A stretch of 64,000 nucleotides of DNA from an uncultured Actinomycetes bacterium (GTDB lineage Bacteria; Actinomycetota; Thermoleophilia; UBA2241): assembly GCA_963845355.1 (NCBI GenBank), contig CAWJRV010000038.1:13590-77589 (forward strand), in the 5' to 3' direction. Each line of letters opens with the position of its first letter. Within the stretch, counting starts at the first letter, position 1. The position numbers were made by a program, and so were the translations under genes. This document shows positions 34,941 to 52,116 of the stretch, in pieces. The notes under the pieces were generated by a model. It ran no database searches. It was not told the DNA's origin and saw only the letters and a program-made list of their open reading frames with translations.

Positions 34941-36293
34941 TCACCTGCGCACGGCCACCCTGACGACGGGAGTGAAGGCCGTGAACCCTGCGTCTTCGTC
35001 CGAGAAGCGGACCGCGTACCAGGTGGTGCGCGAAGGCCGCAGCAGGGGGCTGTGGAACTTGCCTTCGCTGCCGACGTAGAGATCTACGACCTTTGTCCAC
35101 CCCGGCGCCCTCAGATGCGAGGGCTCGCCCGCGCGGTGGTGCGTCATGAAAAGAGTGACCGTGAAGCCCTCCATGGTCGCCGTCTGGCCGCGGAGGCGCA
35201 CGACGCCGCCACGGTGAATCGACTGCCGCGAAGCGCCGATCGTGCAGACCTGGTAGTCGTCGTAGAGTTCAAGCAGGCTCTGTGGGTCGTCGCTGCGCGT
35301 GGCATAGATCTCATAGACATCGCCGACCGTCGCCCGCTTGGGGATGCGCAGCGAGACGGTGTAGCTCTGGTCGGTCCCCGTCGAGGTGACGACGGTCGCA
35401 GGATAGGTCTGGGTGCCCCAGTCGTCGGGCGAAAGCGAGGAGCCGAAGAACGACATCTGCTGGCCCGCCGGCAGGTTGGAGACGGCGAACCTGACGAGAC
35501 TGCCCGGCCGTCCGGCGTGCTGGCACAGCGGCCCCACCAGACGGCCAAGGACCGCCTGGCTCCAGTCGAACGAGACGGTGGTGCCGGCAAGCGTCCCCGG
35601 CGTCACAGCGACAGGGGTGTGGCTCGGGTTGACCCACTCGCACTCGGCCGACACCGTGTCGTGCGGGTTGTAGGAGTAGGCAACGCCGCTGTTGAAGTCC
35701 GGAGGAGCGGCGTTCACAACGCCTGAGCCCTGGGTGAGATCGATCTGGGTGTCTGCAGACGAACTGGCAGCGTCGCCCAGTGTCACGCCGATGGGCTGGC
35801 CGTCGAGGCCGTGAGCCACGGTCACGGCGACATGGCCCGGACGTAGCGTGTAGTTGTGGGTGGTCGAGAAGTCGAGTCCCCACTGGTCCAAGAAGTAAGA
35901 GCCCGTGTCGGAGTCAAAGACGAAAAGGTCATCGTGACCAGGGTCGGAGGTGACGGCTGGAAGCGAGAAGGTGCCGTCGCCGGCGGTGTTCGTTGTGCCA
36001 CCGTGGTGGTAGACGCCGGCGGTGGGAGACCAGGAGTCGCCGTCGGGGTCAAACCAGCCCCAGTCCACCTCGTAACCGGCCTGAGGATTGCCGAAGAAGT
36101 CCTCGGCAGTGCCGTTGATCGAGTAGGTGGAAGCCGACGACAGAATCGGCATTGAGAGCCGGCTCGGGGCCACCGAGTGCAAACGGAACGCGCGCGCCAT
36201 GGCCAGGTGGCCGTTCATGGTCGCTGCGTGGGCGGCGGGCGCTACGAGCAGCCCGATCGTCAGGAGTGCGACAAAAGCCAGACTGCGTTTCAT
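34941..36293 (-). CDS. secreted protein of an uncharacterised family of about 450 aa (paralog of 44941..46263)
   Basis: Inner ATG MKRSLAFVALLTIGLLVAPAAHA (signal). It shares blocks with 44941..46263, e.g. GPLCQHAGRPGSLVRF, YTVSLRIPKRATVGDVYEIY, LLRPSRTTWYAVRF, FTPVVRVAVR. Confidence 0.8.
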   Translation of the reverse strand: MKRSLAFVALLTIGLLVAPAAHAATMNGHLAMARAFRLHSVAPSRLSMPILSSASTYSINGTAEDFFGNPQAGYEVDWGWFDPDGDSWSPTAGVYHHGGTTNTAGDGTFSLPAVTSDPGHDDLFVFDSDTGSYFLDQWGLDFSTTHNYTLRPGHVAVTVAHGLDGQPIGVTLGDAASSSADTQIDLTQGSGVVNAAPPDFNSGVAYSYNPHDTVSAECEWVNPSHTPVAVTPGTLAGTTVSFDWSQAVLGRLVGPLCQHAGRPGSLVRFAVSNLPAGQQMSFFGSSLSPDDWGTQTYPATVVTSTGTDQSYTVSLRIPKRATVGDVYEIYATRSDDPQSLLELYDDYQVCTIGASRQSIHRGGVVRLRGQTATMEGFTVTLFMTHHRAGEPSHLRAPGWTKVVDLYVGSEGKFHSPLLRPSRTTWYAVRFSDEDAGFTAFTPVVRVAVRR

Positions 36294-36488
36294 GTGCCCC
36301 CCCAAGTCCACGCGTTCAGAAGATGGCCTGCGCTGCGGCCAGGCCCATATTATCTCATACGGACCACAGAAACTGGGCATCAGTGCTAGTGGGCGACATC
36401 GCACGAACCAACGGCCTTCGCCGTGGCTGGGCTGAGTGCCACCGAATGCATCGAGCACCGCTCACCGCCATCTTCTGCCCCCAGTTTC

Positions 36489-36506
36489 GGTTACAGGAGG
36501 GTTGCA
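36489..36506 (+). repeat. two GGTT(A/G)CA iterons, 11-bp phasing
   Basis: cGGTTACAggagGGTTGCAcgg. The flanking 60 nt or so resemble the arm next to tRNA-Glu (…CCATCTTCTGCCCCCAGTTTCGGTTACAGGAGGGTTGCA). Confidence 0.6.
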
Positions 36507-36672
36507 CGGCTAACCGATCGTTAGGGCATCTCCGACGGTGTCTCGGTCGCGAGAGCAGGCCGAAACTGTGTCCTGTCTCGCAAGACTCAAAGGCCGGCAG
36601 AGAGCAAGGAAGAAGCCAACGCGTTCCTCACTGTCCTGCCGCCGGTATCCACGTTTTGCCATCGGTCGACAA

Positions 36673-37343: not shown

Positions 37344-37415
37344 CGAGAGGCACAGGGCCGGTCTCCTCTCGCCACGGTCACTACGGTTCACGTGCTCGCC
37401 TAGGTGGGTACAGTC

Positions 37416-37525
37416 GCGCAGTCTCCGAGTTCGGAAGTCCTAAGGGCGCAACGGCCTAAGGTGCCCGAGCCGGTAGGGTGCAGTGCGAAAGCGCCGTGCC
37501 TCCCAGTGCGGAAAGGAGATGGCGC
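37416..37525 (+). promoter_or_regulatory. Moco/Tuco-type (molybdenum/tungsten cofactor) riboswitch candidate
   Basis: The closing stem GCGCAGUCUCC / GGAGAUGGCGC encloses CUCCGAG, GCCCGAGCCGGUAGGGUGC, a GUGC-GAAA-GCGC hairpin, GCCUCCC and GGAAAGGAG. These are the conserved blocks of the Moco RNA motif as I remember it. It lies upstream of a molybdate/tungstate transporter. Confidence 0.6.
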
Positions 37526-37667
37526 CATCAAGACCAGCGTCGCTAGTAGAGGGGACCTACACACCGTGCTTCTTGCGGACGGTCCGCGTTTCGGCGGAAT
37601 AGCCGGTGTGGTGGCCAACCTTCCTTCGCGTGCCGGGGTTTCGTGAATCGCGGCAGAGGAGGAAGAG

Positions 37668-38685
37668 TTGCACGCATTCGATCGAACGAAAATGCCTCGC
37701 AAGTGGTTGGCCCGGGCAGCCGCGCTTTCTGCCGTGGTGCTCGTGGTCGTCGCTGCGGCCGCCTGCGGCTCGAGTTCGAGTTCGTCAGCATCCACGAGCC
37801 CCAGCCCGAGCGCGGCGACTGCCAGCAAGACCCTGATCGTCTTCGGCGCCGGCACGCTGGCCAACCCCTTCACCCAGGATGATCGCCGCCTTCAAGGCGG
37901 CAAATCCCGGCGTCACCGTGAACTCCCACTTCGGCGCCAGCGGCGACGATGTCAAGGATATCACCCAGCTCGGGCAGCCCGCCGATGTGCTCGGCGTCGC
38001 CGACTACTCGCTGATTCCCAGCGAGATGTTCAACGTCAACGGGAAGAGCTACGCGAGCTGGTACATCGGCTTCGTCTCCAACCAGATCACCTTCGCCTAC
38101 ACAGCCACAGCAAGGGCGCCGCGCAACTGACGGCCAGCAACTGGTACAAAGTCCTGGCCGAGCCCGGGGTGCGCATCGGTCGCTCCAACCCGGCGGCCGA
38201 TCCCTCCGGCTATCAGATCCTTCAGGCGCTCAAGCTGGCGCAGAGCTACTACCACGACCCGAACTTTCGGCCTCGGTGCTGAAGAACTCACCCAGCTCCT
38301 CCGAGGCCGAGACCGAGACCTCGTTGCTCGGCGCCCTGCAGAGCGGCCAGATCGACTACCTGGCGATCTACCGCTCCGACGCCCTGCAGAACCACCTGAA
38401 GTACATCCATCTGCCCGCCGCAGATCAGCCTCTCTGACCCCGCTCTGGCCAAGTCCTATGCGACCGTAAGCGTGCAGGGCCCGACGGAATGGTCACTGGC
38501 AAGCCGATCATCTACGGCTTGACGGTTCCCAGCAACGCTCCCAACTCGGCCCTCGGCGAGCAGTTCGTCGCCTTCGTTCTGGGCCCAAGGGCCAGGCGAT
38601 CATGCGCGCCAACGGTTTCGTGGTCATCTCTCCAGCGCTGGCCAGCAGCACGAGCGCCGATTCCGGCGTCACTCGAGCTCGCTGA
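37668..38685 (+). pseudogene. molybdate/tungstate ABC transporter substrate-binding protein (WtpA/ModA type), multiply frameshifted
   Basis: TTG after GAGGAGGAAG with lipobox VVAAAACGSS. The recognisable sequence hops frames: TLIVFGAGTLANPFTQ | MIAAFKAANPGVTVNSHFGASGDDVKDITQLGQPADVLGVADYSLIP...ITFAYTA | AQLTASNWYKVLAEPGVRIGRSNPAADPSGYQILQALKLAQSYYHDPNF | ...LLGALQSGQIDYLAIYRSDALQNHLKYIHLP | QISLSDPALAKSYATVSVQG | VTGKPIIYGLTVPSNAPNSALGEQFVAFVLGP | KGQAIMRANGFVVISPA. Confidence 0.8.
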
Positions 38686-38716: not shown

Positions 38717-39606
38717 ATGACTGATTCTCGGGCCACCGCCGAACATCCAGGTGTAGCCGGCGGTGGCCCGGCCGACAGATCGGCGGGCCGGCGCCCGCCG
38801 CGGTGGCCTTCCGGCCTGTTCCAGGCACTGCTGTGGTTGGCTCAGCGGCTTGCTGATTGCCTTCATCGTGCTGCCCATCGTGCGCCTGGCGGCGACTTCG
38901 TCGCCCTCTAGCCTGATCAGCGCGGCAAGCGAAGCCGAGGTACGTAACGCCATCGTCTTGAGCCTGCAGGATGCGGCGATCACGGCCGTGATCGCCACCC
39001 TGCTGGGCGTGCCGCTTGCCTACCTGCTCGCCCAGCGTCGCATCCCCGCGCCCGGACTCGTGCAGGCCATCGTCGATCTGCCACTGGCGGTGCCGCACAC
39101 GGTGGCTGGCATCGCCCTGCTCGTTCTTGCTGGGGCGCACCGGCTGGGTCGGTGCCCCGGCGGGGCACCTCGGCGTGTCCTTCTACGGGTCACAGTGGGG
39201 CATCGTGGCAGCCATGCTTTTCGTCAGTGCGCCGTTTGCCGTCAACAGCGCGCGGGTCGCCTTCGAGGCGATCGACCCCAATCTCGAACGCGCCGCCCGC
39301 AGTCTGGGCGCCACTCGCGCGCATACCTTTCGTCGCATCACGCTGCCGTTGGGCGCCCGCGGCGTGCTCACCGGTGCCGTGCTGGTATACGCACGTTCGA
39401 TCGCCGAGTTCGGCGCTGTGGTGATCATCGCCTACTACCCTGTCACGGCGCCCGTCGAGATCTACAATCTGTTCCTGCGTTCCGGTCTGGCGGCTGCTTC
39501 GTCAGCCTCCGTGCTGCTGCTGATCGTGGCGCTGGCGACCTTCCTCGTGCTACGCACTCTGGCCTCTGGCCGCTGGCTGTGGATCGCTGACCGTGGCCCT
39601 CGCTGA
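38717..39606 (+). pseudogene. ABC transporter permease (molybdate/tungstate type), frameshifted
   Basis: Three frames are needed: MTDSRATAEH.. | LLIAFIVLPIVRLAATSSPSSLISAASEAEVRNAIVLSLQDAAITAVIATLLGVPLAYLLAQRR...VDLPLAVPHTVAGIALL | LLGRTGWVG...AMLFVSAPFAVNSARVAFEAIDPNLERAARSLGATRAHTFRRITLPLGARGVLTGAVLVYARSIAEFGAV (EAA-loop region). Confidence 0.8.
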
Positions 39607-40686
39607 CAGCGGCCTGGTCATCGAGGGCGTCAGAGCGCGCGCCGGCTCATTCGAGCTTGGCCCGATCGATCTCGACGTGAAATGTGATCGCGTGCTGGCG
39701 GTCCTCGGGCCCTCCGGTGCTGGCAAGACGATGCTGCTCGAGACGATCGCCGGCTTTCGCGCGGCTGCTGGCGGGCGCCATCTCGCCTGGGCGGCAGGCA
39801 GCTGGGGCGGCTGCCCCCGGAAGAGCGCGCCATCGGCTTCGTCTTCCAAAACGCAGCCCTGTTCCCGCACCTGTCGGTGCGCGACAACGTGGGCTTTGCC
39901 CTTCGCGCCCGCGGCGAGCGCCACTACGGCAGCGCGTTGACGCGCTGCTGGCTCGCTTCGAAATCATGTCACTTGCCGAGCGATCACCTGCGCTCACTGA
40001 GCGGCGGCGAGCGTCAGCGCGTGGCTCTGGCGCGAGCGCTGGCCGCGGCACCCGGGCTGCTCCTCTTGGACGAACCGCTCTCGGCGCTCGACCGACCCAC
40101 GCGCGACGATCTGCGCATCGTCCTGCAAGAGCTGCTTGGCGGACTGGGGATCCCGGCTATCCACGTCACCCACGACCGCGACGAGGCGCTCAGCATCGCG
40201 GACCAGGTCGCCGTCGTTGTCGCTGGGAAGGTTCGCCAACTGGCCGGTGCCCACGAGATCGTTGCTCAGCCGGCAGATGACACCTGCGCGCGGCTGCTGG
40301 GCTGGTCCGAGCTTGGTGTCGGACGCCTCGATCACGGCGTGCTGACGGTAGGTGCCCTCGTGCTCCCCGCTCACGGCGCTCTCGACGGCTGGAATGGTCC
40401 GGTCTCAGTCTTCTACCGGCCTGAGTCTGTGCTTCTGGGCGTCGAGGCCGCAGGAAACCCCGGCGGCGCAGCGTTCGAGGCCACGGTCGATCGCGTCCTA
40501 CCGACGACGCCGCTTGCTCGAGTCGTTCTTGGGGGCGAGACGGCCATGACCGCTCTGCTACTAGCACGCGACCTGGGGCCGCTGGACCTGCGACCTGGAG
40601 CATCAGTCAAGGTCGGGCTGCCGCCGGGCTCACTGTGCATCTTCCCGCTGGCTGATGTGCGCGACGGATCAGACCCGGTCGACTGA
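39593..40686 (+). pseudogene. ABC transporter ATP-binding protein, frameshifted
   Basis: Walker A LGPSGAGKTMLLETIAGF is in one frame. LPPEERAIGFVFQNAALFPHLSVRDNVGFAL is in a second. RVDALLARFEIMSLAERSP is in a third. It then returns to LSGGERQRVALARALAAAPGLLLLDEPLSALD...HVTHDRDEAL. The GTG start overlaps the permease stop. Confidence 0.8.
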
Positions 40687-40981: not shown

Positions 40982-41416
40982 ATGTTGTACGTAGCCAAGA
41001 GTGAAAGGTCGAGGACGATGACTGCTACCAAGTCCAACCTGGGGGAGCTGAATGGGGCGTGCCGCGCCGAGGCGATCAGGCTCGCGTTTCCGGAGCTCGT
41101 GTCGAAGCTGCAGGATCTGCTGACCCCACGACTCGTGGCCTATATCGGTTCAGTTGGTGAGACGCGCGCGGTCCGCCAGTGGGCGGAGGGCTCGCGAAAG
41201 CCGCAGGGTGACGTTGCGCGCCGGTTACGCGAGGCATACGCCCTCGCGTTGTGTATCTCACGAGAAGAGGATATCGAGGCAACTCAAGCCTGGTTTCAAG
41301 GGCTGAACCCGCTGCTCGGTGATGCTGCGCCTGCCCGGCTGCTTCGGGACGGCGACCTTGACAAGGTCGGTCCCATGGTCATCAGGGCTGAACGGCACTT
41401 CCTTGCCGAAGGGTGA
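40982..41416 (+). CDS. Xre/ParS/MbcA-type antitoxin (DUF2384 toxin-binding domain)
   Basis: 144 aa. ...TRAVRQWAEGSRKPQGDVARRLREAYALALCIS...EATQAWFQGLNPLLGDAAPARLLRDGDLDKV. The stop overlaps the GTG of the RES gene (GTGA). Confidence 0.8.
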   Translation: MLYVAKSERSRTMTATKSNLGELNGACRAEAIRLAFPELVSKLQDLLTPRLVAYIGSVGETRAVRQWAEGSRKPQGDVARRLREAYALALCISREEDIEATQAWFQGLNPLLGDAAPARLLRDGDLDKVGPMVIRAERHFLAEG

Positions 41417-42105
41417 CTCTGCTCCTCGACACCGAGGCGGCACCCACTACGCTCTACCGCGTGGGAAACGAACCGGACCCCTGGGATTGGCCGGGTTGGT
41501 CATACATCGGTGGTGAACGGTGGGATGACCCCCGTCGTGAATACCGGGTTCTCTACGCAAGCTACGATCGGGTCGGTGCACTTCTCGAGGTGTTCGCCAA
41601 GTTCCGGCCTGGCCTTGATCAGATAGTGAACGAGAGCGACCCGCATGCTGCGTCTCCCTTTCCAATGGGCGTTGTCCCTGTGGGCTGGCTGTCCCGACGA
41701 GTGATCACAAGGGGCGTCGCGTCCGGCGTGCATGGGCCGCTTGTCAAGGTGGGAGGGGAGCAGTCACTCGCGGCGCTTCGTCGTGCCTCCGATCTCGCCG
41801 CGCTGCTCGTCGCGCACGGGGTCGAGGACCTCGACACGAGCACGATCCGCAGCGCTGACGCAGACGTGACTCAGGCAATCTCAAGGGTCGTATTCGAAGA
41901 GATGCAGGCCAACGGGGACTCCTACGCCGGCATCTACTACCTCTCGCGGTACAGCGACAACGTTCCGAACTGCGCCCTTTTTGAACGCGCAACCGGAGCC
42001 CCTGTTTCGGTGACGCTCTTGGACCGCTCTTCAATCGATCCCGACGACCCCGATGTCAAGAAGGCCTGCTCGTTGCTCGACCTCGAAATGGAGCCGCTCC
42101 ACTAG
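41413..42105 (+). CDS. RES domain toxin (NAD+-targeting family)
   Basis: YIGGERWDDPRREYRVLYASYDRVGALLEVFAKF (R and E regions) and YAGIYYLSRYSDNVPNCALFE (S region). At 230 aa it is longer than the usual RES proteins. Confidence 0.85.
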   Translation: MTLLLDTEAAPTTLYRVGNEPDPWDWPGWSYIGGERWDDPRREYRVLYASYDRVGALLEVFAKFRPGLDQIVNESDPHAASPFPMGVVPVGWLSRRVITRGVASGVHGPLVKVGGEQSLAALRRASDLAALLVAHGVEDLDTSTIRSADADVTQAISRVVFEEMQANGDSYAGIYYLSRYSDNVPNCALFERATGAPVSVTLLDRSSIDPDDPDVKKACSLLDLEMEPLH

Positions 42106-43011: not shown

Positions 43012-43098
43012 GCGAAGGCACGAAAGGCAAACCGCCTGTGAGGGCGGGGCGCAAAGCCACAGGACTCGGAACACGGGAGTCGGCTGGGTTGCCGCGGC
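43012..43098 (+). promoter_or_regulatory. c-di-GMP class I (GEMM-I) riboswitch aptamer
   Basis: GCACGAAAGGCAAACC-[CCGCC UGUGA GGGCGG]-GGCGCAAAGCC-ACAG-[GACUC GGAACACG GAGUC]-GGCUGGGUUGCCG. It matches the GEMM-I hallmark blocks (GGCAAACC, ACGCAAAGCC, GGGUUGCCG) and the two-hairpin layout of Vc2-type aptamers. Confidence 0.75.
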
Positions 43099-43160: not shown

Positions 43161-43228
43161 CGTGGTCACCTCGCAAACAGCAGGGTCTGTAAGGTTTCGA
43201 CTCGATTGCGAAGGAGGTGACAACTCAC

Positions 43229-43648
43229 ATGAAGTCATTCACCAAGACCAAGGGCGAAAAGGGGTTCACCCTCATCGAGCTCCTGATCGTGATCATCATC
43301 ATCGGTATCCTGGCGGCGATCGCCATCCCGATGTTCCTGAATCAGAGGGACAAGGCCAAGGACGCCGCCGTCAAGGAGGGCATCCACAGCATCCAGGTGG
43401 GTATCGAGAGCTACGCGGTCGACCACAGCGACGCCTTCCCGGGCACCATCACCGACAAGACGCAGCTCGTCGACGCCAACGGCAACAACTACGTGGACAA
43501 CTGGCCCAAGAACCCGTTCTCCACGACCGGCGCCTACATGCAGAGCGGTACCGACCAGGGCAACTACACCTACACCGACATCCCGGCCTCGAGCACCTTC
43601 ACGCTGCAGGGCCACCTGTCCAACAGCGGACAGTTCCAGGTTCCGTGA
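43229..43648 (+). CDS. type IV pilin (prepilin N-terminal cleavage/methylation domain)
   Basis: ATG after [43 protein letters not shown] is the class III signal. Confidence 0.9.
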
Positions 43649-43674
43649 TCCAGGTTCGTCTGGATTGAGTGCCC

Positions 43675-43710
43675 CGAGGGGGCGGCTCTGCCGGTGCAAA
43701 GCCGCCCCCT
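43675..43710 (+). terminator. perfect 12-bp hairpin between the two pilin genes (no U-tract)
   Basis: GAGGGGGCGGCT (43675-43686), a 12-nt loop, AGCCGCCCCCTC (43699-43710). Confidence 0.35.
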
Positions 43711-43758
43711 CGAACGAGCATCGTGCCGGCAACCGATGGACCAGGGAGGGCAGCTCAG

Positions 43759-44157
43759 ATGAGAAAGCGCGCAGGCCAAAGGGGCTTCACGCTCATCGAG
43801 CTCCTGATCGTGATCATCATCGTCGGTATCCTGGCGGCGATCGCCATCCCGATGTTCTTGAACCAGAGGAACAAGGCCAAGGACGCCGCCGTCAAGGGCG
43901 GCGTGCACGTCATCGAGCTCGGCATCGCAAGCTACGCCATCGACCATGCCGACACGTATCCGGTCGCAGTGTCGAAGGCTACTCTGCTCGACACCAACGG
44001 CAGCTCCTACGTCGACAACTGGCCGAAGAACCCGTGGACGAATGTCGACATGCAGGACAGCTCCAATCTCGGCGACTACACCTACACGCAGATCGGCGGC
44101 GGCACGAACTTCCAGGCCGTGGGCCACATGAGCAGCGGCGGTTGGACAGTCCCGTAG
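43759..44157 (+). CDS. type IV pilin, tandem paralog
   Basis: ATG after [53 protein letters not shown]. It shares YVDNWPKNP with the first pilin. Confidence 0.9.
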
Positions 44158-44478
44158 GCGCTGCCGTCGTGACGAGGCATCCGTCGGTCGTAGCGGGCTC
44201 GAACCGCGCTTCACCCAAGTCGACGAGCGGACGGCGCGGCGCGGCGCACAATCCTTCAGGCTCGCCGAGCCACTTCTGCCGTTGCCGTCGCTGGTCTCGC
44301 CCACAGCCCAGCCGTGAGAGGGCAGTAGCGTACCTGTTCACGCCGAACGTTCCGCGCCCATGGTAGCCACGCTTCCACGCCCGCTTCAACCGGGCCGGAG
44401 GACGCTTCTCCAAAGCGGGCTGCGAGTGTCGCTGAGTGTCGTCGGGGCCGCTCCGTACCATCTTCTAGCGCCACGTTC

Positions 44479-44507
44479 GGTTGCAGGAGGGTTGCAAGCG
44501 GGTTGCA
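44479..44507 (+). repeat. three GGTTGCA iterons at 11-bp phasing
   Basis: cGGTTGCAggagGGTTGCAagcgGGTTGCAgaa. The copies start at 44479, 44490 and 44501. Confidence 0.85.
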
Positions 44508-44567
44508 GAAGGCGTTCCGAGAACACCGAGAAATGCATAAAACACCTGCAAATACGCCTGAAATGGG

Positions 44568-44614
44568 TGGTAGCGCATACCGGATTCGAACCGGTGTTAC
44601 CGCCGTGAGAGGGC
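44568..44614 (-). repeat. duplicated 3' half of tRNA-Glu (att-type direct repeat)
   Basis: TGGTAGCGCATACCGGATTCGAACCGGTGTTACCGCCGTGAGAGGGC is identical to 52041-52087. It covers the stretch from the anticodon stem to CCA. Confidence 0.9.
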
Positions 44615-44730
44615 AGTAGCCTTGGTGTCAGGGAGTGCCGCCGAGTGCCTTCAAGTGCCATCTCACGCTTGGCAAACCGAACCGAATTGCCGCCGAGTAC
44701 CACTGAGCGCCACCTAACGCAGCTGCCTTC

Positions 44731-44748
44731 GGTTGCAGGATGGTTGCA
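44731..44748 (+). repeat. two GGTTGCA iterons at 11-bp phasing (left arm of the island)
   Basis: cGGTTGCAggatGGTTGCAaga, in the same orientation as the triplets at 44479 and 51952. Confidence 0.8.
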
Positions 44749-44940
44749 AGACGCCGATGCGTGGCCGAAACCGCGCTACCGAGACGTCCGACTGTGAGGG
44801 CCCTGACCAAGACAGCCACCGCCCTCCATTTTCGCGCGAGCCTACGTTGCACAGCCGCCGCAGAGGTCTAGTATGGATATCGGAGGGGCCTGCGCCGGCG
44901 CGGCTGTGTGCAGCCCGACACGCATCGGTGGGGGGTCGCT

Positions 44941-46263
44941 GTGAGACGCCTGTTGACTTGTGCGTTCGCCGTGCTTGGCGCTGTGCTGCTTCTGGTGCCC
45001 GCCCCGGCGCTGGGGTCGCCAGGCGCGAGTCTCACCCCGGGTGCGGTACCGGTGAGTCATGTCGAGTCAGCGCAACTCGGCGGGGTCACCTATGCCATCA
45101 GCGGCACCGTCCTCGACTACTCGGGTAACCCCGTCAGTGGTGCTGCCGTCGGGTGGGGATGGATGCCGCCCGGCTATGAGCTGGATCCTTTGGTCGCGGC
45201 TCAGTTCGGAGGAGGCGTGCTAAGCACAGGTGGCCAGTTCTCGTTTACCACCGTCAGCTCGCACCCGGGCAACGACTGCCTCTTGGTGGAATACGAGGCT
45301 GCGTTTTCGCAACCACAATGGCTGGCAAGCTGGGCGTATGATTTCTCGGCGAATAACCAGGCAAGCTCGTACCGCTACTCCGTGCAGCCCGGCGCCATCG
45401 ACATACAGATCACCAAGCCGCCCGTCGGCTTCGATCCTCAGGTCGATGTCTACGGCGCTAACGGCATGGCTCAGTCCTTCCCCTCCCTGTTTTCGGGCGT
45501 GGAGCTCGTCCCGATGGCACCGCCGAGCTTCAACGACGTCGTGGTCAGTGACGTGCAGACGCCAGGCGACGCACAGAACGTGACGGCGGCTGCCGAGTGG
45601 CTGAGCCCAAGCGCGGTTCCTGTGGCCGCCGGGTCACAGGCATCCAGCCCGGTCGTCTTCGACTGGAGCCACGCCCAGCGCGCCTACCTCGCCGGGCCAC
45701 CCTGCCAGCACTGCGGTCGGCCGGGAAGCGTCGTCAGGGTGGTCCTCAAGGGCTGGCCGGCCGGTGAGAAGGCCGGCTTTCAGCTCACCGACTACAAGCC
45801 CTACCCGACCCAGGTGTCCTCCGCTGGTACCGACAAGACCTACGTCGTCAAACTACGAATCCCCAATAGCGCTGATCCGGGCGAGTCCTACGACCTGACC
45901 ACCTACCGCACCGACGACCCTGCCAGTCACCTCAGTCTGTGGGATGGTTTCCAGGTGTGCGCCTTCAGATCGACTGCCGACGTCGTCGTGCGCGGCACGG
46001 GCATCCGACTGCGCGGCACGGTGCCGTCGGCCGCACGGACTGTCTGGCTGTTCGCACGACACAGCGCAGCGGCGCGGCCGGCAACAGTGACTGCGCCGGG
46101 TTGGCACAAGGTCGGCCACTACCGGGCAAACGACAACGGCACGTTCGTGAGCGCTCTGCTTCATCCGAGCCGTACCACCTGGTATGTGGCGCGGTACCCG
46201 CGCAGCAGTGACGACGGCCCGAGCTTCTACTTCACACCGGTCGTCAAGGTCAGCGTGCGCTAG
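44941..46263 (+). CDS. secreted protein of an uncharacterised family of about 450 aa (paralog of 34941..36293)
   Basis: GTG (or the upstream start at 44908). VRRLLTCAFAVLGAVLLLVPAPALG signal. Shared blocks are GPPCQHCGRPGSVVRV, YVVKLRIPNSADPGESYDLT, LLHPSRTTWYVARY, FTPVVKVSVR. Confidence 0.8.
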   Translation: MRRLLTCAFAVLGAVLLLVPAPALGSPGASLTPGAVPVSHVESAQLGGVTYAISGTVLDYSGNPVSGAAVGWGWMPPGYELDPLVAAQFGGGVLSTGGQFSFTTVSSHPGNDCLLVEYEAAFSQPQWLASWAYDFSANNQASSYRYSVQPGAIDIQITKPPVGFDPQVDVYGANGMAQSFPSLFSGVELVPMAPPSFNDVVVSDVQTPGDAQNVTAAAEWLSPSAVPVAAGSQASSPVVFDWSHAQRAYLAGPPCQHCGRPGSVVRVVLKGWPAGEKAGFQLTDYKPYPTQVSSAGTDKTYVVKLRIPNSADPGESYDLTTYRTDDPASHLSLWDGFQVCAFRSTADVVVRGTGIRLRGTVPSAARTVWLFARHSAAARPATVTAPGWHKVGHYRANDNGTFVSALLHPSRTTWYVARYPRSSDDGPSFYFTPVVKVSVR

Positions 46264-46350
46264 GGGCGCTGCCCAAACGCCTCGCGTTCGGCAGTCAGCG
46301 TAGGACGTGGCTCGTTGGATGCGGGCATCTGCGGGTGGGCAAGGTGGCCG

Positions 46351-46450
46351 TCCCGGATACATCTCCGAGGCCGCGGAAGGTATCTCCGTCGCGCTCAGAG
46401 GTGGTCGGGGCTATCCGTGGCCGCGGTGAGCAGGAGAAGGCGGGGAAAGG
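46351..46450 (+). repeat. copy B of the unexplained intergenic element
   Basis: It shares the 25-mer GGCCGCGGAAGGTATCTCCGTCGCG with copy C, plus ...GGGCTATC(C/T)GTGGCCGCG(G/A)TGAGCA... Confidence 0.75.
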
Positions 46451-46584
46451 CCGCGAAATACGCCGAGTCGATGCCGACGGTGTCGCGCATCAAGGCATGC
46501 CCGTGCGACCGTGACGGCTTACGGAGAGAAGCGTAGGCTTTGTCGCAGTTGCTCGGCATGCACAACTACTGTCAGGCAGGGTGA

Positions 46585-46968
46585 ATGTTCGGACGCCAGC
46601 ACAACAAGCTCGTCAGTCACTTCCGCGCTTCGGCCGAGGAGGGCTTCGTCAACCTGCGCTGGCGTGTCACAGAAGCAAACGACGCTCGCTACCGAGTGTT
46701 GCGCTCGGAGCGACGCTACCCCGAGACGCCTGAGGCCACCGCCGACTGGGATCTCCTGTGGGAGGGTGCCGACTGCGACTATCAGGACCGCGGGGCGGCC
46801 GGGCAGCGACACTACTTCTATGTTCTCTACGCCCGCGGTCCTGCCGGTGACTGGCAGGAGCAGAGTCGCGCCCGCGTGAAGGCCAAGTCGTCGCCGGTAG
46901 AGCGCGCGTCTATTGAAGCGCGCAACCTCGGCATCGGGACCTATCCCATCCCTCCGACCGGACACTAG
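46585..46968 (+). CDS. small cytoplasmic Fn3-like protein (family with 52382 and the fragment at 49287)
   Basis: 127 aa. HFRASAEEGFVNLRWRV...YRVLRSE...WDLLWEG...GQRHYFYVLYARGPAGDW. No signal peptide. Confidence 0.6.
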   Translation: MFGRQHNKLVSHFRASAEEGFVNLRWRVTEANDARYRVLRSERRYPETPEATADWDLLWEGADCDYQDRGAAGQRHYFYVLYARGPAGDWQEQSRARVKAKSSPVERASIEARNLGIGTYPIPPTGH

Positions 46969-47086
46969 GCGCCGCCACATCTAGCAAGCGCATCAACATG
47001 ACGCGCCCGAGTGCCGCGATAGACTCCAGCCGCAGTCCGCGCAGGTTGTGCGCCCGACGTTAGCCCGACAGGCAGAAGGGGGAGCA

Positions 47087-47554
47087 ATGCTACTCCGCAG
47101 GTCTCGAATCCGCTGCGCTGCGCTCGGGCTTACGCTACTGCTGTCACCTTGCATGGTGGCCTCCGCCTGCGGCTCCGCCTCCGCCTCTTGGCAGGGAACC
47201 TGGATACCGACCTCCGGCGCGCTGCGTTTCCCCCATGAACTGGGGGAGGGTGGGCTCGCCTGGGCTCCGTCGGCCAAGTCCGGAGGCGGCATCGTTATCA
47301 CCAAGGCCGGCGACTCCTATGTCGCCACCCTTGTCAGCGACGACGGCACCCGCGTCCAGGGCAAGGCCGTAGTGCAAGGCAGAGACCTGCTCGTCTCCTA
47401 CGGCGTAGCCCGGTACCTCCTGCTCCCCGACGCGGCCGACAAGACCCGCCTGCTGCTGGCGGGCGACCAGGGCGGCTCGCCCGCGCCCCAGGTGGCGGCC
47501 ACCCTGCAGCCTGGCGCTCTTGCCCCGACACCCGTCGCGACGAATCTGCCGTGA
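47087..47554 (+). CDS. lipoprotein (GTW lipocalin-like family)
   Basis: ATG after GGGGGAG. LLLSPCMVASACGS lipobox. WQGTWIPTSG...IVITKAGDSYVATLVSDDGTRV. Confidence 0.7.
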   Translation: MLLRRSRIRCAALGLTLLLSPCMVASACGSASASWQGTWIPTSGALRFPHELGEGGLAWAPSAKSGGGIVITKAGDSYVATLVSDDGTRVQGKAVVQGRDLLVSYGVARYLLLPDAADKTRLLLAGDQGGSPAPQVAATLQPGALAPTPVATNLP

Positions 47555-47582
47555 ACTACTCAATGATCGTTAAGGCTCTCCA

Positions 47583-47682
47583 CCTCCGGATGCGCCTCCG
47601 CGGCCGCGGAAGGTATCTCCGTCGCGTTTCGAGGAGTCCGGGCTATCTGTGGCCGCGATGAGCACAAGAACGCGAAGGAGAG
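47583..47682 (+). repeat. copy C of the unexplained intergenic element
   Basis: CTCCGGATGCGCCTCCGCGGCCGCGGAAGGTATCTCCGTCGCGTTTCGAGGAGTCCGGGCTATCTGTGGCCGCGATGAGCACAAGAACGCG... Confidence 0.75.
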
Positions 47683-47804
47683 GCGTCGAGCGCACGCGGG
47701 TCGAGAGCGCGGGAAGGTCGAAGGCCAGAGCCATCACCCTGGCCCTACTGCTATGCTAGTCGTCAGGCGTACAGCGTCAACGCGACACAGGGGGTGTGAG
47801 GCCG

Positions 47805-48215
47805 ATGCGTTTCGTTACCAAGGCAGCCCTTGCCGCTTCGGTCGCGCTGACCTGCCTTCTTACGGTATCGGCCTGCGGCAACGGCATGAGCGGCTCGTGG
47901 GTGCCCAGTCGGGGAAGCGTCGTCTGGACAGACAAACAGGGGACTAGCGGCTACGACTTCGGCGGCACGGCGGCGCGGCCGGGTGGGCTGATCATCTCGA
48001 AAGACGGCGGGGGCTACAAAGTGACCCTCGTGAGCCGCGACGGTTCGCGCTACCCGACCATCGCGGGGATGGGCGGGGCCAGGCTGGAAGTCTTCGTTGG
48101 CGGCGCGCTCGTGCCGATGTTCTTCCTCTCCCAAGCCGCTACGAACACCTTGTCCATGGAGGCGCAGGAAGGTGGCTTTGTACACGTCATGGACTTCAAG
48201 CGGGGTTCGCCCTAG
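47805..48215 (+). CDS. lipoprotein (GTW lipocalin-like family, paralog of 47087)
   Basis: MRFVTKAALAASVALTCLLTVSACGNG lipobox. SGSWVPSRG...LIISKDGGGYKVTLVSRDGSRY. Confidence 0.7.
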   Translation: MRFVTKAALAASVALTCLLTVSACGNGMSGSWVPSRGSVVWTDKQGTSGYDFGGTAARPGGLIISKDGGGYKVTLVSRDGSRYPTIAGMGGARLEVFVGGALVPMFFLSQAATNTLSMEAQEGGFVHVMDFKRGSP

Positions 48216-48398
48216 CCGTTCGTCACACTCGCCGGGATGAAGCCCACCCCTCACGACCCCGCCTCCGGCTCCAGCAGGCGACCCGGCACGACTGCGCGCG
48301 CCTATCGGGTGCGCCGTGAGCGCGACCGCGGCGAAGGGCGACCGGGTCAAGGCCGCGGGCGATCGTGCTCAAGGTCGCCACAGTGTTAGGATTATCAG

Positions 48399-49034
48399 AT
48401 GAGGCGCGGCCTTGTCATGGTTCTCGTGGCGGTCTTTCTCGTTGGGGGCTGCACGAGCAAGTCCGCCGCGCCTCCAATCGCCACCCCCATCCCGCACGCG
48501 AAGACCTTCGCCAGCCGCGACCTGCGCTTCTCGGTGTCCTACGACGCGAGCAGACTCGTCGACAGCATCAGCAGTTCCTACTCCGGGCTAGCAGGAAACT
48601 GGCTCGTCGTCTACTTCACCGACGGCGACACCAGAGGACGGCCATCGACGCGGCCCTACGGTCCGAACGGGGGGCTCGGCATCGACGCTGAAGAGGTCAT
48701 GCTCCCCGAGCCGTCGCTTTCCGCTGCCCGCGTCTCGCTGTCGACCGACTACACTGCGGTGGGCGCGCCGCCCGGAACCACCGTCTTCATGATGAAGCAG
48801 CAGTTCGCGCACTTCACCGTGGGCGCGGTCGAACCCATCACGTTGAACGGGCTTTCGGGTTACCGAATCCACTACTCGTGGACCGGCGGCTCCGCGGAGA
48901 CGTACGAGCTGTACAAGCTCCTCGACCACACGCCCTACGGATACACGCTCACGCTCACGCTCAGCGGCAAGGCTCGCCCTGCCTACAGGCAGGCGCTGGA
49001 CGCCGCCCTGCAGTCGTTCGCCGTCACGCGGTAG
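48399..49034 (+). CDS. lipoprotein, possibly PsbP/DUF1795-like
   Basis: MRRGLVMVLVAVFLVGGCTS lipobox. ...LRFSVSYDASRL...ITLNGLSGYRIHYSW...YTLTLTLSGKARPAYRQALDAALQSF. The fold call is inferred. Confidence 0.7.
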   Translation: MRRGLVMVLVAVFLVGGCTSKSAAPPIATPIPHAKTFASRDLRFSVSYDASRLVDSISSSYSGLAGNWLVVYFTDGDTRGRPSTRPYGPNGGLGIDAEEVMLPEPSLSAARVSLSTDYTAVGAPPGTTVFMMKQQFAHFTVGAVEPITLNGLSGYRIHYSWTGGSAETYELYKLLDHTPYGYTLTLTLSGKARPAYRQALDAALQSFAVTR

Positions 49035-49286
49035 CGCCTGCTGCCTGACTAGATCACCCTGCGGGAATGCGGGCACGTGCGGGTAGGTAGGACGGCCACT
49101 CCGAACGCCGCAACCGATTCGAGGCCGTTGGCGTCCCACTAGCCTGGCCACCCAGCCGCAAGGCGACGTGTGCCCGAAAGCGTGGGCCGAGCATACACTC
49201 ATGCGGCTTGTGCTATCGTCACCGTAGTAGCTTCGTCAGGCCGGTTGCCAGCGACGACGCCGGCGCGGGCACTGGGAAGGATGGTC

Positions 49287-49466
49287 ATGCACCTGTTCGG
49301 AAACAGCAGCGGACCGCATCTGGCTCACTTCCAGGCCTACCGCGATCACGGTCACGTCGAACTGGACTGGGAGGTGCGAAACGCTCCTCCGCTGAACTGG
49401 CCCAGGCGGCCAGGAGCCTTTGGCCGAAGCACCGATAGGAAGCCTTTTGGACTGACCGACCCCTGA
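49287..49466 (+). pseudogene. N-terminal fragment of an Fn3-like protein of the 46585 family
   Basis: MHLFGNSSGPHLAHFQAYRDHGHVELDWEVRNAP resembles LVSHFRASAEEGFVNLRWRVTEAN. The rest diverges and stops early. Confidence 0.35.
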
Positions 49467-49756
49467 GTCGTATGCGGTGCACTCCCCACAAACCCAGGCT
49501 GCTCTTAGGATTCTGACGCCTCATCCGGCGCGAAATCGTGGCTGATATCGGCCTGTGCCAACGATCCGCCAACGTCAGGGAGGGCAGCCTCGGCGTACCG
49601 GCACCCCGTCTGGACGTCGCGCGCGCCCGTGCGGGCGCGCGCGACTGGGCAATCCGTGCCCGCCGCGAGTGCCCTCCGACTTCCGATCAGCAGACCGTGT
49701 CGGAGGCCAGCGCGGCCGGCCCGGCTGCTCTATGCCGGTCCGCTTCGAGCCATCGC

Positions 49757-50144
49757 CTACCTACCAAGAGCCAGCTGAATCACGATGAAGACCAGCGAGG
49801 GCAGGGCGAAGCCGATGAAGACAAGGCCCGGTGCGACGAGCGGCGCAGGATATGCCCTGAACCGTCGACTACGGGAGAATCCTCGACTGACCGGCAGAGG
49901 CGAGAGCAACCCGATGCCGAGCGTCAAGCCGCCCAAGGCGATGACGGTTACTCCACCGGTTAGCAAGCGGTGAGCAGCCGAGATCGAGCAGGCCTAGAAC
50001 TGCGGCACCCAATACGGGAGCGCCCGCAACTAGGAGCACGCCAGGCCACGGCGACGGCCGGGGCTCAGGTGGTCGCGGGACGGCGACGTGCCCTTGCCAG
50101 TGCTCGACCTTGCCTTGCTTCGGTTCTTGTGGCGTGTCACTCAT
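49757..50144 (-). pseudogene. membrane protein apparently split by a frameshift near 49970
   Basis: MSDTPQEP...WPGVLLVAGAPVLGAAVLGLLDLG is in one frame. It continues as LLTGGVTVIALGGLTLGIGLL...LVAPGLVFIGFALPSLVFIVIQLAL in another (ORFs 49869..50192 and 49757..49966). Confidence 0.35.
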
Positions 50145-50411
50145 CGCGCGCACCTGTTTCTGCGTGGGTCGTCCCCAGGCAATCCTACTCAACTACATCA
50201 TACTGCAGCGACCGCGCAGCACAGCCTGGGTGTCCTGGCCAGGGCCCGGTGCCGGCCAAGCCAAGGCGGCCAGATCGGCTGCGGTGGCACGGTGGCAACG
50301 TGGTCGGCACCTGGAGGGTACCGATATCGATGAGGAGGTCGCGATGGGGGAGTTGCTCGCCGACTAGGCACTCAGTAGGCTGTTGGAGTCGACTCAGGGG
50401 GGCTGACTGAC

Positions 50412-50723
50412 GTGATTGCTGCGCTGCTGATCATCGCGGCCATCTTCTGGGTCGGCGCAGCTTTTGGTCTCGGATACTGGTGCAAGATCATCTGGCAGCG
50501 CAAAGCGCGTTCGCCGTGGGCTGGTTTTGCCTTGGGGACCCTGCTGTCTCTCTTGGAGACTCCCATCGCCGGACTCGCCGTGGTGGGTGTAAGTTACGCG
50601 CTTGCCGACCGGTCCAAGGGGCCGTCGCCTCGCTCCGCCGTCGCCGTCGTCGGCCTGGTTGCGGTGGCCGCGATCGTCGTGTTCAGCGTTGTCTTTCAAG
50701 CCGTGGTACACGCCCATGGCTAG
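50412..50723 (+). CDS. small membrane protein (3 TM)
   Basis: GTG start. IAALLIIAAIFWVGAAFGLGYWCKII...FALGTLLSLLETPIAGLAVVGVSYAL...AVVGLVAVAAIVVFSVVF. Confidence 0.6.
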   Translation: MIAALLIIAAIFWVGAAFGLGYWCKIIWQRKARSPWAGFALGTLLSLLETPIAGLAVVGVSYALADRSKGPSPRSAVAVVGLVAVAAIVVFSVVFQAVVHAHG

Positions 50724-50812
50724 GTCGTGAGAGTCGCGAGCATCTTGCTGGCTCCCGTTTTGGCCCTGGGCTGCTGTGCCGGCAAGTCTGTCGCAGGGCG
50801 GAGGTTCTGCAC

Positions 50813-51094
50813 GTGAGACCGACCGGCGCAGCGGCTGTCGTTGTCGTGATTCTCGCTAGTCTGCTCGCGGCGTGCGGCGGACAGGCGTCACACGCGCAAA
50901 GTCCGTCGCAATCAGCCATGCCGTTACAACCCTCCCTCGGCTTCACTGTGGACCGAACGACGGCCGACCCAATCCGCATGTCGGCGATCCACTCGCGGAA
51001 TAAGCTCGCAGACATTTACTCTCGGACATCACTATCACCTCGTCTAATTCTGGCAATGCTCCGACTTCCGCAAAGGATCGCAGTTCGAGTTTGA
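50813..51094 (+). CDS. short lipoprotein; the C-terminus is doubtful
   Basis: GTG after GGAGG. VRPTGAAAVVVVILASLLAACGG lipobox. The last 40 codons are in lower-GC sequence and may be out of frame with 51091..51591. Confidence 0.45.
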   Translation: MRPTGAAAVVVVILASLLAACGGQASHAQSPSQSAMPLQPSLGFTVDRTTADPIRMSAIHSRNKLADIYSRTSLSPRLILAMLRLPQRIAVRV

Positions 51095-51591
51095 CCTCGA
51101 GGAGAACTCTCCGAGCGGGGGAGGTGGCGACGAGCTGGTGGGAGTGGGACGGTACGGCAGAAATCAGTACGGCACGGACCAGGTTACTGGAAGTGACCAT
51201 ACGCAGCTATCTCGACCGCTCGGACTATACGAACGGCAAGCGGGTCTACCCGAGCTCGTACGAACTTCGGGTCTCCGCCAAGGCATGCCATTGGTCGCTT
51301 GAGGTGCTCTGCGACGGGCATTCGCTGCTCACCTACACAGGACGTGGCTTCGCCGTGACCTACGATCCCGCCAAGGCTAGCCTCTCGGCCGCTCCGATGT
51401 TCAAGAAGGGCGCCTCTGTGATCGTTGGCGAAGGCATGCAGATGTACAACGACCAGTACGCCCTCGTACTGGAAATCGTCAACGATGGGGCGTCCCGCAT
51501 CGGCCGCAGAAGCCACGATGATGGCTCGCGTGATGCACAGGCGGCCTCGACCTTGCTCGACTCGACGGCGCACGGGGTTATGAGGTCATGA
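51091..51591 (+). CDS. hypothetical protein
   Basis: 166 aa from a TTG. The start is uncertain and the composition is normal (…YELRVSAKACHWSLEVLCDGHSLLTYTGRGFAVTYDPAKA…). Confidence 0.45.
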   Translation: MTSRRTLRAGEVATSWWEWDGTAEISTARTRLLEVTIRSYLDRSDYTNGKRVYPSSYELRVSAKACHWSLEVLCDGHSLLTYTGRGFAVTYDPAKASLSAAPMFKKGASVIVGEGMQMYNDQYALVLEIVNDGASRIGRRSHDDGSRDAQAASTLLDSTAHGVMRS

Positions 51592-51951
51592 TGCGGCAGG
51601 ACGGCACCGATGTGGGCCGGTACCTGCTTGAGGCTACGCCGTTTTCGCTACATGATGGTGACCATGACCGACAGCAAACCACGGTGGTCGAGTCGTCTGG
51701 AGCGGCTCGTCAGGTCGGTGAGATTCCTACGCTGACCGCAGGGGCGTAACAGGAGCGAACGGCTCGGGAGCCAAATCCGTTACAGCGCGGGGTGTTCACT
51801 TTCGGGGCGGTCGCTATACCCCCGCTGAGCAGCCCGGAGGCTGGCGTGGTGGGCGACGTTGGAATCGGACCAGCGACCTCCACCGCGGGTGAGCGGTGTG
51901 CGGATGAGTGTCGTCGAGCGTCGCTCCGCGCCATCTTGTAGCGCGGATTTC

Positions 51952-51980
51952 GGTTGCAGACGGGTTGCAAGCTGGTTGCA
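51952..51980 (+). repeat. three GGTTGCA iterons at 11-bp phasing (tRNA-proximal arm of the island)
   Basis: cGGTTGCAgacgGGTTGCAagctGGTTGCAgag. The copies start at 51952, 51963 and 51974. Confidence 0.85.
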
Positions 51981-52040
51981 GAGAGGCTTCTGAGGCAGGC
52001 GAGAAACGCACAAAACCCCTGCATCTACGCCTGAAGAGGG

Positions 52041-52116
52041 TGGTAGCGCATACCGGATTCGAACCGGTGTTACCGCCGTGAGAGGGCGGCGTCCTAGGCC
52101 CCTAGACGAATGCGCC
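52041..52116 (-). tRNA. tRNA-Glu(CUC): tRNA-Glu, anticodon CUC, CCA encoded
   Basis: The reverse complement is GGCGCAT TC GTC TAGGGGCCTA GGAC G CCGCC CTCTCAC GGCGG TAAC ACCGG TTCGAAT CCGGT ATGCGCT A CCA. It forms a cloverleaf with a G1-U72 wobble and has the same architecture as E. coli tRNA-Glu. Confidence 0.9.

Follow-up and report, generated by a model that had tools for sequence, protein, structure and literature searches.

The phased GGTTGCA repeats in a stretch of the genome of an uncultured Thermoleophilia bacterium (Actinomycetota, soil lineage) belong to a conserved attP-like unit of about 375 bp that stands at the junctions of genomic islands beside a tRNA-Glu(CTC) gene. The window, by which we mean the whole stretch of 64,000 nucleotides that was analysed, is G000:C38:13590-77589, where G000 is the draft assembly of that genome (2.16 Mb, 53 contigs, 56.6% complete). 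We read the heptamers, with a probability of roughly three in four, as the predicted protein-binding arm sites of an attachment (att) site, used by elements that insert into the 3' half of tRNA-Glu(CTC). The phased repeats occur nowhere else in the assembly, they are conserved around the tRNA core in related genomes, and in those relatives they are accompanied by one clade of tyrosine integrases.

The attP-like unit in the window

An earlier reading of the window, made from its letters without database searches (the sequence-only reading), had picked out four loci with phased GGTTGCA heptamers, and all four are where it placed them (Table 1), on the + strand and with heptamer starts invariably 11 nt apart, the fourth locus with one mismatch. 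Allowing at most one mismatch, the pair GGTTGCA-N4-GGTTGCA is found 6 times in the window, for 0.00 expected in 100 dinucleotide-preserving shuffles, and across the entire draft assembly it is confined to these four loci. Chance does not account for these loci, and a genome-wide search for the pair, which the sequence-only reading had proposed as a check, finds it neither frequent nor randomly placed. In a scan of spacers of 0-15 nt over the whole assembly, N4 alone is enriched; the two matches with an N15 spacer connect iteron 1 to iteron 3 of the triplets. Relaxing the motif to G[GT]TTGC[AG] adds one site only, beside a tRNA-Ala gene on the same contig (C38).

The repeats are parts of a larger arrangement, for which we built a profile from six complete copies and with which we scanned the window using nhmmer. 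Read along the + strand, the unit begins with four to five AGTGCC-like repeats at 10-bp phasing, then TTC and three GGTTGCA at 11-bp phasing. A spacer of about 60 nt, with conserved AAAACCCCTGCA and CCTGAAG, separates this triplet from the core, which is the last 47 nt of tRNA-Glu(CTC). We call this triplet-bearing side the X arm. The Y arm, on the other side of the core, has nGTAG..TGGTGTCAGG, three to four AGTGCC at 10-bp phasing, more AGTGCC-type repeats, and finally TTC-GGTTGCA twice. Heptamers are present on both arms, three at 60-89 nt on one side of the core and two beginning at 115-117 nt on the other. In the complete unit of the window, AGTGCC-family copies beyond those of Table 1 lie at about 44696 in the Y arm and at 44425, 44435 and 44454 in the X arm. 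The second X arm adjoins the intact tRNA gene, and arm and tRNA together (51896-52089) match profile positions 25-220 with E = 1e-47; its spacer has AAAACCCCTGCA at 52012-52023 and CCTGAAG at 52030-52036. A base-by-base comparison of the two core copies finds 50 of 50 nt identical at an offset of 7473.

Distances estimated in the sequence-only reading agree with this anatomy. The triplets, put at about 60-90 nt from a tRNA-Glu 3' half, both stop 60 nt short of the tRNA 3' end or of its copy, and the doublet at 44731, put at about 120 nt across the core, begins 115 nt beyond the core copy. Joining the island ends was predicted to give an attP-like segment with three sites, a core and two sites; this arrangement exists as a physical, contiguous and conserved sequence at 44403-44774 and in relatives. 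The predicted length of about 270 bp is right for the span from triplet to doublet (44479-44748, 270 bp) and too small for the conserved unit, which is about 375 bp (44403-44774). We also considered the conserved X-arm spacer as a terminator of the tRNA, and rejected it because the spacer (61-66 nt) folds no better than its shuffles (not significant, z-scores -0.6 to +1.0).

Two further pieces are leftovers of other units. The locus at 36.5 kb had been noted as a complication, since it has no tRNA fragment. There is indeed no core there, but the arm is the same one: the stretch 36432-36507 shares 80% identity with the X arm at 44448-44496, against 69% with the Y arm. It is what is left of an older unit that lost its third iteron, its spacer and its core by deletion, and as a truncated copy of the triplet-bearing arm it does not represent an independent kind of site. 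The second piece is ccgtgagagggcagtag at 44312-44330, a core-to-Y-arm junction found as the same 17-mer at 44602-44618. This 17-nt remnant of core plus arm shows that there was a further unit, nearly wholly deleted, and marks the left end of a deletion derivative of about 0.25 kb in tandem with the 7.4-kb island.

Table 1. Features of the attP-like units and of the islands in the window (positions are those of the window)
Feature	Position	Strand	Description
Iteron triplet	51952-51980	+	GGTTGCA x3, spacers gacg and agct; copies start 51952, 51963, 51974
Iteron triplet	44479-44507	+	GGTTGCA x3, spacers ggag and agcg; copies start 44479, 44490, 44501
Iteron doublet, Y arm	44731-44748	+	GGTTGCA x2, spacer ggat; begins 115 nt past core copy
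Iteron doublet	36489-36506	+	GGTTACA and GGTTGCA, spacer ggag; one mismatch; second copy at 36500
Complete attP-like unit, X arm-core-Y arm	44403..44774	+	nhmmer profile positions 4-378, E = 3.9e-103
X arm (triplet-bearing) joined to intact tRNA	51896..52040	+	Weak AGTGTC-type repeats, TTC, GGTTGCA x3, 60-nt spacer
Truncated X arm, ends after iteron 2	36432..36507	+	nhmmer profile positions 23-99, E = 3.5e-10
Second repeat family, core-proximal Y arm, 10-bp phasing	44624..44659	+	GGTGTC, AGTGCC, AGTGCC, AGTGCC
Intact tRNA-Glu(CTC), integration target	52041..52116	-	ARAGORN; Rfam tRNA 56.9 bits
Core copy 1	52038..52087	.	50 nt: tRNA positions 30-76 plus 3 nt
Core copy 2, displaced tRNA-Glu 3' half at island junction	44565..44614	.	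Identical to 52038-52087
Core-to-Y-arm junction remnant ccgtgagagggcagtag	44312..44330	+	Same 17-mer at 44602-44618
Integrase-less 7.4-kb island: Y arm, cargo, X arm	44617..52040	+	Pfam and PHROGs scans

The cargo of the 7.4-kb island consists of a secreted protein of about 440 aa and seven small open reading frames (ORFs) without Pfam or PHROG matches. Except for its two arms and a small dispersed repeat, the island (44617-52040) is unique to G000 in the genus. The 5' flank of the tRNA-Glu gene keeps its synteny throughout the genus, with 76-86% identity. It is at the boundaries of variable cargo that the unit is found: the arms and the tRNA 5' flank recur and the interior does not. At the left border of the variable region there are scattered synteny matches only, and the conserved flank probably begins near 31-33 kb. 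The dispersed repeat is an intergenic sequence of about 100 nt found twice inside the island (46353-46409 and 47586-47642, copies 82% identical); almost all genomes of the genus have many contigs that match it, and it would be a dispersed small element or RNA.

The unit and the associated integrases in relatives

The same unit is present in the related genomes G031 (MFD09964.bin.1.34) and G101 (MFD03804.bin.2.198) and in metagenome contigs, for example L211, L215, L238 and L288, and it recurs in such genomes and contigs with nearly fixed distances between arms and core. In the window and in five G031 units the triplet is 60-63 nt away from the core and the doublet 115-117 nt, so that comparing the att regions of related elements, also proposed earlier, finds the phased motif at a nearly constant place relative to the core. 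In an alignment of 33 copies to the profile, the information per column is similar in the heptamers and in the tRNA core and clearly lower in the N4 spacers. For an ascertainment that does not depend on the iterons, we used the syntenic tRNA 5' flank to locate the X arm beside the intact tRNA-Glu in seven species of the genus. All seven retain iterons 1 and 2, one of them with the variant GGCTGCA twice.

To describe the range of the unit we used the exact doublet-plus-core pattern. Of 79 genomes sampled from the window's family (f1), 13 have it, in three genera; of 322 genomes from 11 other families of the class, none does. Iterons with a core are found in 47 metagenome contigs, 19 of them beside an intact tRNA-Glu(CTC) and 14 with whole units; most of these contigs are short, and a missing integrase there is weak evidence. 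Looking for free phage or plasmid forms, we find that the triplet pattern matches 39 IMG/VR contigs, none with the unit. Bare-triplet matches in genome contigs of unrelated taxa do not have the unit either and are chance or other repeats.

In two relatives the units form long arrays. In G031, 44 units, full or partial, are spread over the ends of two contigs: on C5 they begin at the intact tRNA-Glu (C5:145983) and continue as far as the end of the contig, and on C4 they cover 633-777 kb, again up to a contig end. The two stretches are probably one array of about 170 kb. In G101, the units of a second array extend across about 145 kb. The cargo of the G031 array is mixed: 109 ORFs match 112 Pfam families, such as transporters, dehydrogenases and stress proteins, with two Mutator transposases, and among the 25 most-matched Pfam families listed for this array there are no conjugation or phage structural genes. 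Within it (L031-L040) we observe a homologue of the rifampin ADP-ribosyltransferase Arr-ms (E = 5.4e-49), three MMPL transporters and AbiEii-type AAA_21 proteins, by which the array includes accessory genes of resistance and defence types. One G031 unit (G031:C4:749056-749235 and 750642-750824) is split within its tRNA core, at profile positions ~194-202, by an insertion of about 1.4 kb.

Integrases are nearly absent from these arrays. On the window's contig (C38) there is no Phage_integrase match. The sole intact integrase within the G031 array is at C5:156274-157428, and the G101 array has an intact orthologue, 88% identical to it, and two decayed copies; both intact genes lie in a conserved module of about 3.7 kb. 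Homologues at 58-65% identity are found in elements that start at tRNA-Glu with an X arm (L285) or with a whole unit (L288). Four independent sequences (G031, G101, L285 and L288) thus tie to this arm a class of enzyme that requires arm sites. The array integrase has the domains Phage_int_SAM_3 and Phage_integrase; among its nearest solved structures is the Tn1549 integrase (residues 122-355, E = 2e-17), and the arm-binding domain Arm-DNA-bind_4 (PF14657) is on record in many homologues at 50-55% identity. By these matches it is a Tn916/Tn1549-like tyrosine integrase, a family that has an N-terminal arm-binding domain. The N-terminal domains of two integrases that share the heptamer, P0001 and that of L081, are about 40% identical by eye, no more conserved than the rest of the proteins, which makes the comparison uninformative. 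Together with the conserved unit and the conservation of its heptamers, the integrase in sibling elements supports the proposal of the sequence-only reading that the repeats are arm sites.

Fuller elements show what surrounds the integrase. Their gene order is a primase-helicase (Prim-Pol/PriCT_1/AAA_25), the integrase, a helix-turn-helix (HTH) protein of phrog_645, two small ORFs and an HD-domain protein. The conserved HTH protein (phrog_645, Sigma70_r4_2) directly follows the integrase in the G031 module, L285, L286, L287 and L288, and L286 has in addition an HTH_17 protein (32 bits) upstream of the primase. We looked for an excisionase in the arrays and find HTH_17 in the G101 array region and L286, and none in the G031 array or the islands of the window. 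The interval between primase and integrase has repeats of its own: TGCGGGTAT, ATACCCGCA and ACACCCGCA, three copies of each, in G031 (L041:926-1226), and inverted TTGCAGCACC-type repeats followed by an AT-rich stretch in L288 (7560-7830). These are candidates for a replication origin or for integrase regulation. An isolated GGTTGCA doublet also lies some 1.3-2 kb downstream of the integrase module, at G031:C5:158741-158758 (L041:3959-3976) and at L285:13214-13231. In both of these independent elements it faces opposite to the flanking arms, and it could be a regulatory or synapsis site or the relic of a junction.

The heptamer is not limited to tRNA-Glu. Beside other tRNAs we find GGTTGCA or GTTTGCA at 11-bp phasing after 10-bp-phased repeats of a different sequence. 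In L044 (G029:C1), an arm with two GGTTGCA lies downstream of tRNA-Ala(CGC). In L081 the heptamer stands beside a fragment of another tRNA, with a 43%-identical integrase about 0.8 kb away, followed by a putative VapBC-type pair (antitoxin and PIN-like toxin, read by eye from the sequence). From element to element the second repeat family differs, reading GCGTCCC in G029 and CCGTGTC in L081, for instance, and the heptamer is constant. Such a heptamer beside different tRNAs suggests a reader common to sister elements with different core specificities. In G000 itself, a sister arm at tRNA-Ala(TGC), outside the window (G000:C38:105670-105900), has two GTTTGCA separated by aaag after 10-bp-phased repeats, and then AAATCCCTGCA. 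A copy of a tRNA-Ala fragment is on contig C37 (G000:C37:116031-116209), and both the C38 and the C37 sites are preceded by the start of a common short ORF (AGGAGTCTCGTATG...). About 65 nt upstream of the 5' end of the tRNA-Ala(CGC) gene, L044:388-425 has three copies of GGGTTGCGGAT, an 11-nt tandem repeat; these heptamer-like repeats on the chromosomal side of the tRNA are not explained by the simple model.

Candidate readers of the heptamers

The sequences show the anatomy of the unit, its conservation, its place at island junctions and its association with an integrase clade in relatives. What we say of the protein that binds, of the geometry of the intasome and of present activity in G000 is what we infer. 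The circular element would carry the ~375-bp unit as its attP. A heterobivalent integrase of Tn916/Tn1549 type would cut and rejoin DNA in the tRNA core with its catalytic and core-binding domains, probably at the anticodon stem-loop, where the block of identity starts, a placement in keeping with tRNA-targeting integrases in general. Its small N-terminal domains would hold the five heptamers, which at 11-bp spacing would lie on one face of the helix, and both arms would fold onto the core in an intasome, as at the attP of phage lambda. Bending or directionality factors would occupy the AGTGCC blocks and the conserved spacer motif. With every insertion the tRNA would be regenerated and a displaced 3' half left behind, and repeated insertion at the regenerated tRNA would then stack islands with an arm, a core and an arm at every junction. 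The window lacks an integrase-bearing member of such a stack, and its leftovers are a whole junction unit, an arm at the live tRNA and a truncated arm. For the protein that reads the heptamers we lean slightly towards the integrase; a directionality, excision or accessory factor is considerably less probable, and a reader of any other kind about as improbable as that factor.

Several observations count against heptamers read by an integrase at a functional att site. The clade of the array integrase is not found in the window's contig or in the 56.6%-complete assembly, and its best relative in G000 is a frameshifted paralogue at 40-50% identity on C28. The Arm-DNA-bind_4 match of the array integrase (residues 22-56, E = 4.8e-4, 20.1 bits) falls below the Pfam cut-off of 22.3. 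The third iteron is degenerate in 4 of the 7 species of the genus, so that a layout of three plus two is not strictly required and the constant feature is two to three copies in the X arm. All five heptamers have the same orientation, unlike lambda, where the sites of P and P' are mutually inverted and P1 and P2 are not adjacent. The two X arms of the window are 82% identical with identical cores; at this identity the insertions are not recent, and the combination is better explained by sister elements that inserted separately than by a duplication in recent times. Finally, the second phased family, AGTGCC, could equally be the arm site of the integrase, with GGTTGCA the site of another protein.

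This last exchange of roles defines the alternative in which the heptamers are still sites in an att arm, read by a directionality factor or a DNA-bending protein, and AGTGCC repeats are the integrase arm sites. Candidate factors are the HTH_17 protein or the HTH protein resembling sigma-70 region 4, bound head to tail with one protein per helical turn. Winged-helix excisionases and BldC-type proteins load onto 11-bp-phased direct repeats in this manner, one DNA turn per subunit (PMC11963761), which the exact 11-bp phasing matches. Sibling elements encode both HTH_17 (L286) and the conserved phrog_645 HTH after the integrase, the AGTGCC repeats are likewise on both arms, and the heptamer stays constant while the second family changes between elements. 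The heptamers, however, lie on both arms in a 3+2 layout like that of integrase arm sites, and the block of four AGTGCC is 10-45 nt away from the core, the usual place of bending or excision factors. The sites of lambda-type excisionases are known from one arm only. On this balance we consider an exchange of roles a serious but rather unlikely alternative, since candidate HTH genes exist.

Readings outside recombination are far less probable. The sequence-only reading had offered a transcription-factor operator role as an alternative, because two paralogues (genes 34941..36293 and at 44941) start at a distance of 193-196 nt from the doublets at 36489 and 44731. Such operators would control adjacent genes, the paralogous secreted-protein genes among them. 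We rejected operators for the paralogues because their two upstream regions share no homology. The paralogues are not recurrent neighbours of the unit, the family adjoining none in G031, G101 or the 47 metagenome contigs; the iterons are oppositely oriented relative to the two genes, and the 36.5-kb locus is the remnant of a triplet arm. For adjacent genes in general, the neighbours of the unit are heterogeneous, and the motif, found at no other place in the genome, has its position fixed to the tRNA core and not to genes, which leaves an operator role highly improbable. Scarcely more probable are iterons of a replication origin used by the primase-helicase of the excised circle. Full-length siblings encode Prim-Pol/PriCT_1/AAA_25 replication proteins, and an origin must therefore exist somewhere in the element. 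But the heptamers lie on either side of the recombination core, 4-6 kb away from the primase gene, with no AT-rich segment among or next to them, and they persist in units without any replication gene; the islands of the window have none in Pfam and PHROGs scans. The inverted TTGCAGCACC-type repeats and AT-rich stretch by the L288 primase, or the 9-nt triple repeats upstream of the G031 integrase, are better candidates.

A rival of another sort concerns activity and not identity: the sites in G000 may be fossils, in islands that are fixed and decaying and where nothing binds or recombines. The cognate integrase was not found in the draft genome, and at 56.6% completeness it may simply be unassembled. 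Decay is visible in the 82% identity of the X arms, in the truncation of one arm, in the shrinking of one unit to about 0.25 kb, and in the neighbouring older region with its decayed transporter genes. Against this, no mismatch is found in the eight heptamers of the two intact arm sets, nor between the two 50-nt cores. We put the chance that the sites are fossils somewhat below even; heptamers as att-arm sites remain our reading in either case.

Under that reading, the unit provides a precise att-site anatomy (core, two arm-repeat families, distances and a candidate integrase clade) for a lineage without genetics, and a ready sequence marker of island boundaries in fragmented metagenome assemblies. 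Beyond this, the arrays of relatives are notable for their size and for containing almost no integrases: this lineage builds very long arrays of flexible genes at one tRNA gene, mostly from recombinase-less islands. With its integrase, the 375-bp site could become a tool for site-specific integration in high-GC actinobacteria.

Neighbouring features and known systems

Left of the 7.4-kb island, in and near an older and decayed variable region, we observe several features in their own right. At 37411-37534 (+) there is a Moco/Tuco riboswitch (56.2 bits, over the gathering score), which precedes an apparently fragmented molybdate ABC transporter (substrate-binding protein fragment 37837-38130, permease 38992-39606, ATPase 39688-40686). 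In the older region, a small ORF and a RES-domain protein (Pfam RES, 41392-42105) occupy 40982-42105 (+). A match to the c-di-GMP-I-GGC riboswitch at 43019-43097 (+), with 54.5 bits just below the gathering score of 59 bits, precedes tandem type IV pilin-like genes at 43193-43648 and 43669-44157, and this block of pilin genes plus leader has many paralogues across the genus.

We compare the unit and its arrays with six kinds of known systems. Integrons, including clusters of attC sites lacking integron-integrases (CALINs), resemble the arrays in two ways: heterogeneous, promoter-poor cargo lies between copies of a single conserved recombination site, and an array has no more than one integrase. 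Since every junction is a complete equivalent of attP with five heptamers, one integrase could excise any run of integrase-less cassettes, and we raise, as a tentative and on balance doubtful idea, that the tRNA-Glu locus may be an integron-like cassette platform with one array-resident integrase. If so, the excised circle would re-insert at the live tRNA, and arrays on the 100-kb scale could be shuffled and exchanged without a recombinase in each cassette. Unlike integrons, the arrays lack an attC hairpin, an IntI-type integrase and an attI/Pc platform and have in their place a double-stranded lambda-type att site on a tRNA core; there is no integrase beside the tRNA end of the array and no significant folding of the spacer.

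Cis-mobilizable elements (CIMEs) and tandem accretion, as in ICESt1/ICESt3 (PMC5704250), and the ssrA islands of Dehalococcoides (PMC3146451) are similar in having both att sites and no recombination genes. Sister elements adjoin them in tandem at a single RNA-gene target, and the integrase of a sister could move them in cis or in trans (PMC5704250; PMC3146451). They comprise few units, against tens in the Thermoleophilia relatives.

Tycheposons of Prochlorococcus are tRNA-anchored islands in which successive integrations push older elements inwards, with partial tRNAs and fragmented integrases scattered through them; they combine a tyrosine recombinase with a replication module, and relatives that resemble phage-inducible chromosomal islands (PICIs) have a small gene of HTH or terS type (bioRxiv 10.1101/2020.12.28.424599). 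The likeness here is one of layout and gene content. It consists of Prim-Pol, integrase, HTH and HD genes in L287 and L288 and arrays with integrase fragments in relatives; in the window it is limited to a partial tRNA and tandem decayed units. Host phylum, integrase lineage and att arms differ, and our arrays are far longer (about 145-170 kb, 44 unit remnants).

The integrative and conjugative element (ICE) ICEMlSym of strain R7A has an attP of 283 bp with five arm-type sites for IntS (TGKTGGTATC), all needed for integration, and its winged-helix excision factor RdfS loads beside an arm site (PMC11963761). Shared with our unit are a tyrosine integrase that targets a tRNA, a similar size of attP and five arm-type repeats. 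The sequence and layout of the repeats differ, and a conjugative element stands against elements with a primase-helicase, phage-like HTH genes and no conjugation genes. In the Tn916/Tn1549 family, the N-terminal Arm-DNA-bind_4 domain reads direct repeats in the arms of the transposon. Integrases of this family (PDB 6EN0, 6EMY, 6EMZ) are among the nearest solved relatives of the array integrase. Tn916-type elements differ in their low target specificity, which is not for a tRNA gene, and the arm-domain match of the array integrase is sub-threshold.

In layout the unit corresponds to the attP of lambda, a site of about 250-400 bp with a short core between two arms, bound by a heterobivalent tyrosine integrase. 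One of its arms has three direct, adjacent repeats and the other has two, and extra sites for bending or excision factors lie between arm sites and core; its arm-type sites P1, P2 and P'1-P'3 are bound by the N-terminal domain of Int. Our unit differs in its 7-mer at exact 11-bp spacing, its 47-nt tRNA core, its second, 10-bp-phased repeat family and its five co-oriented copies. As in a lambda-type att site, the core is the chromosomal target sequence, duplicated at both ends of the island, and the arm motifs are unrelated to the core, stand at fixed distances from it and are more conserved than the sequence between. In this comparison the iterons are probable arm sites of a lambda-type att site of the ordinary kind, in a well-conserved example.

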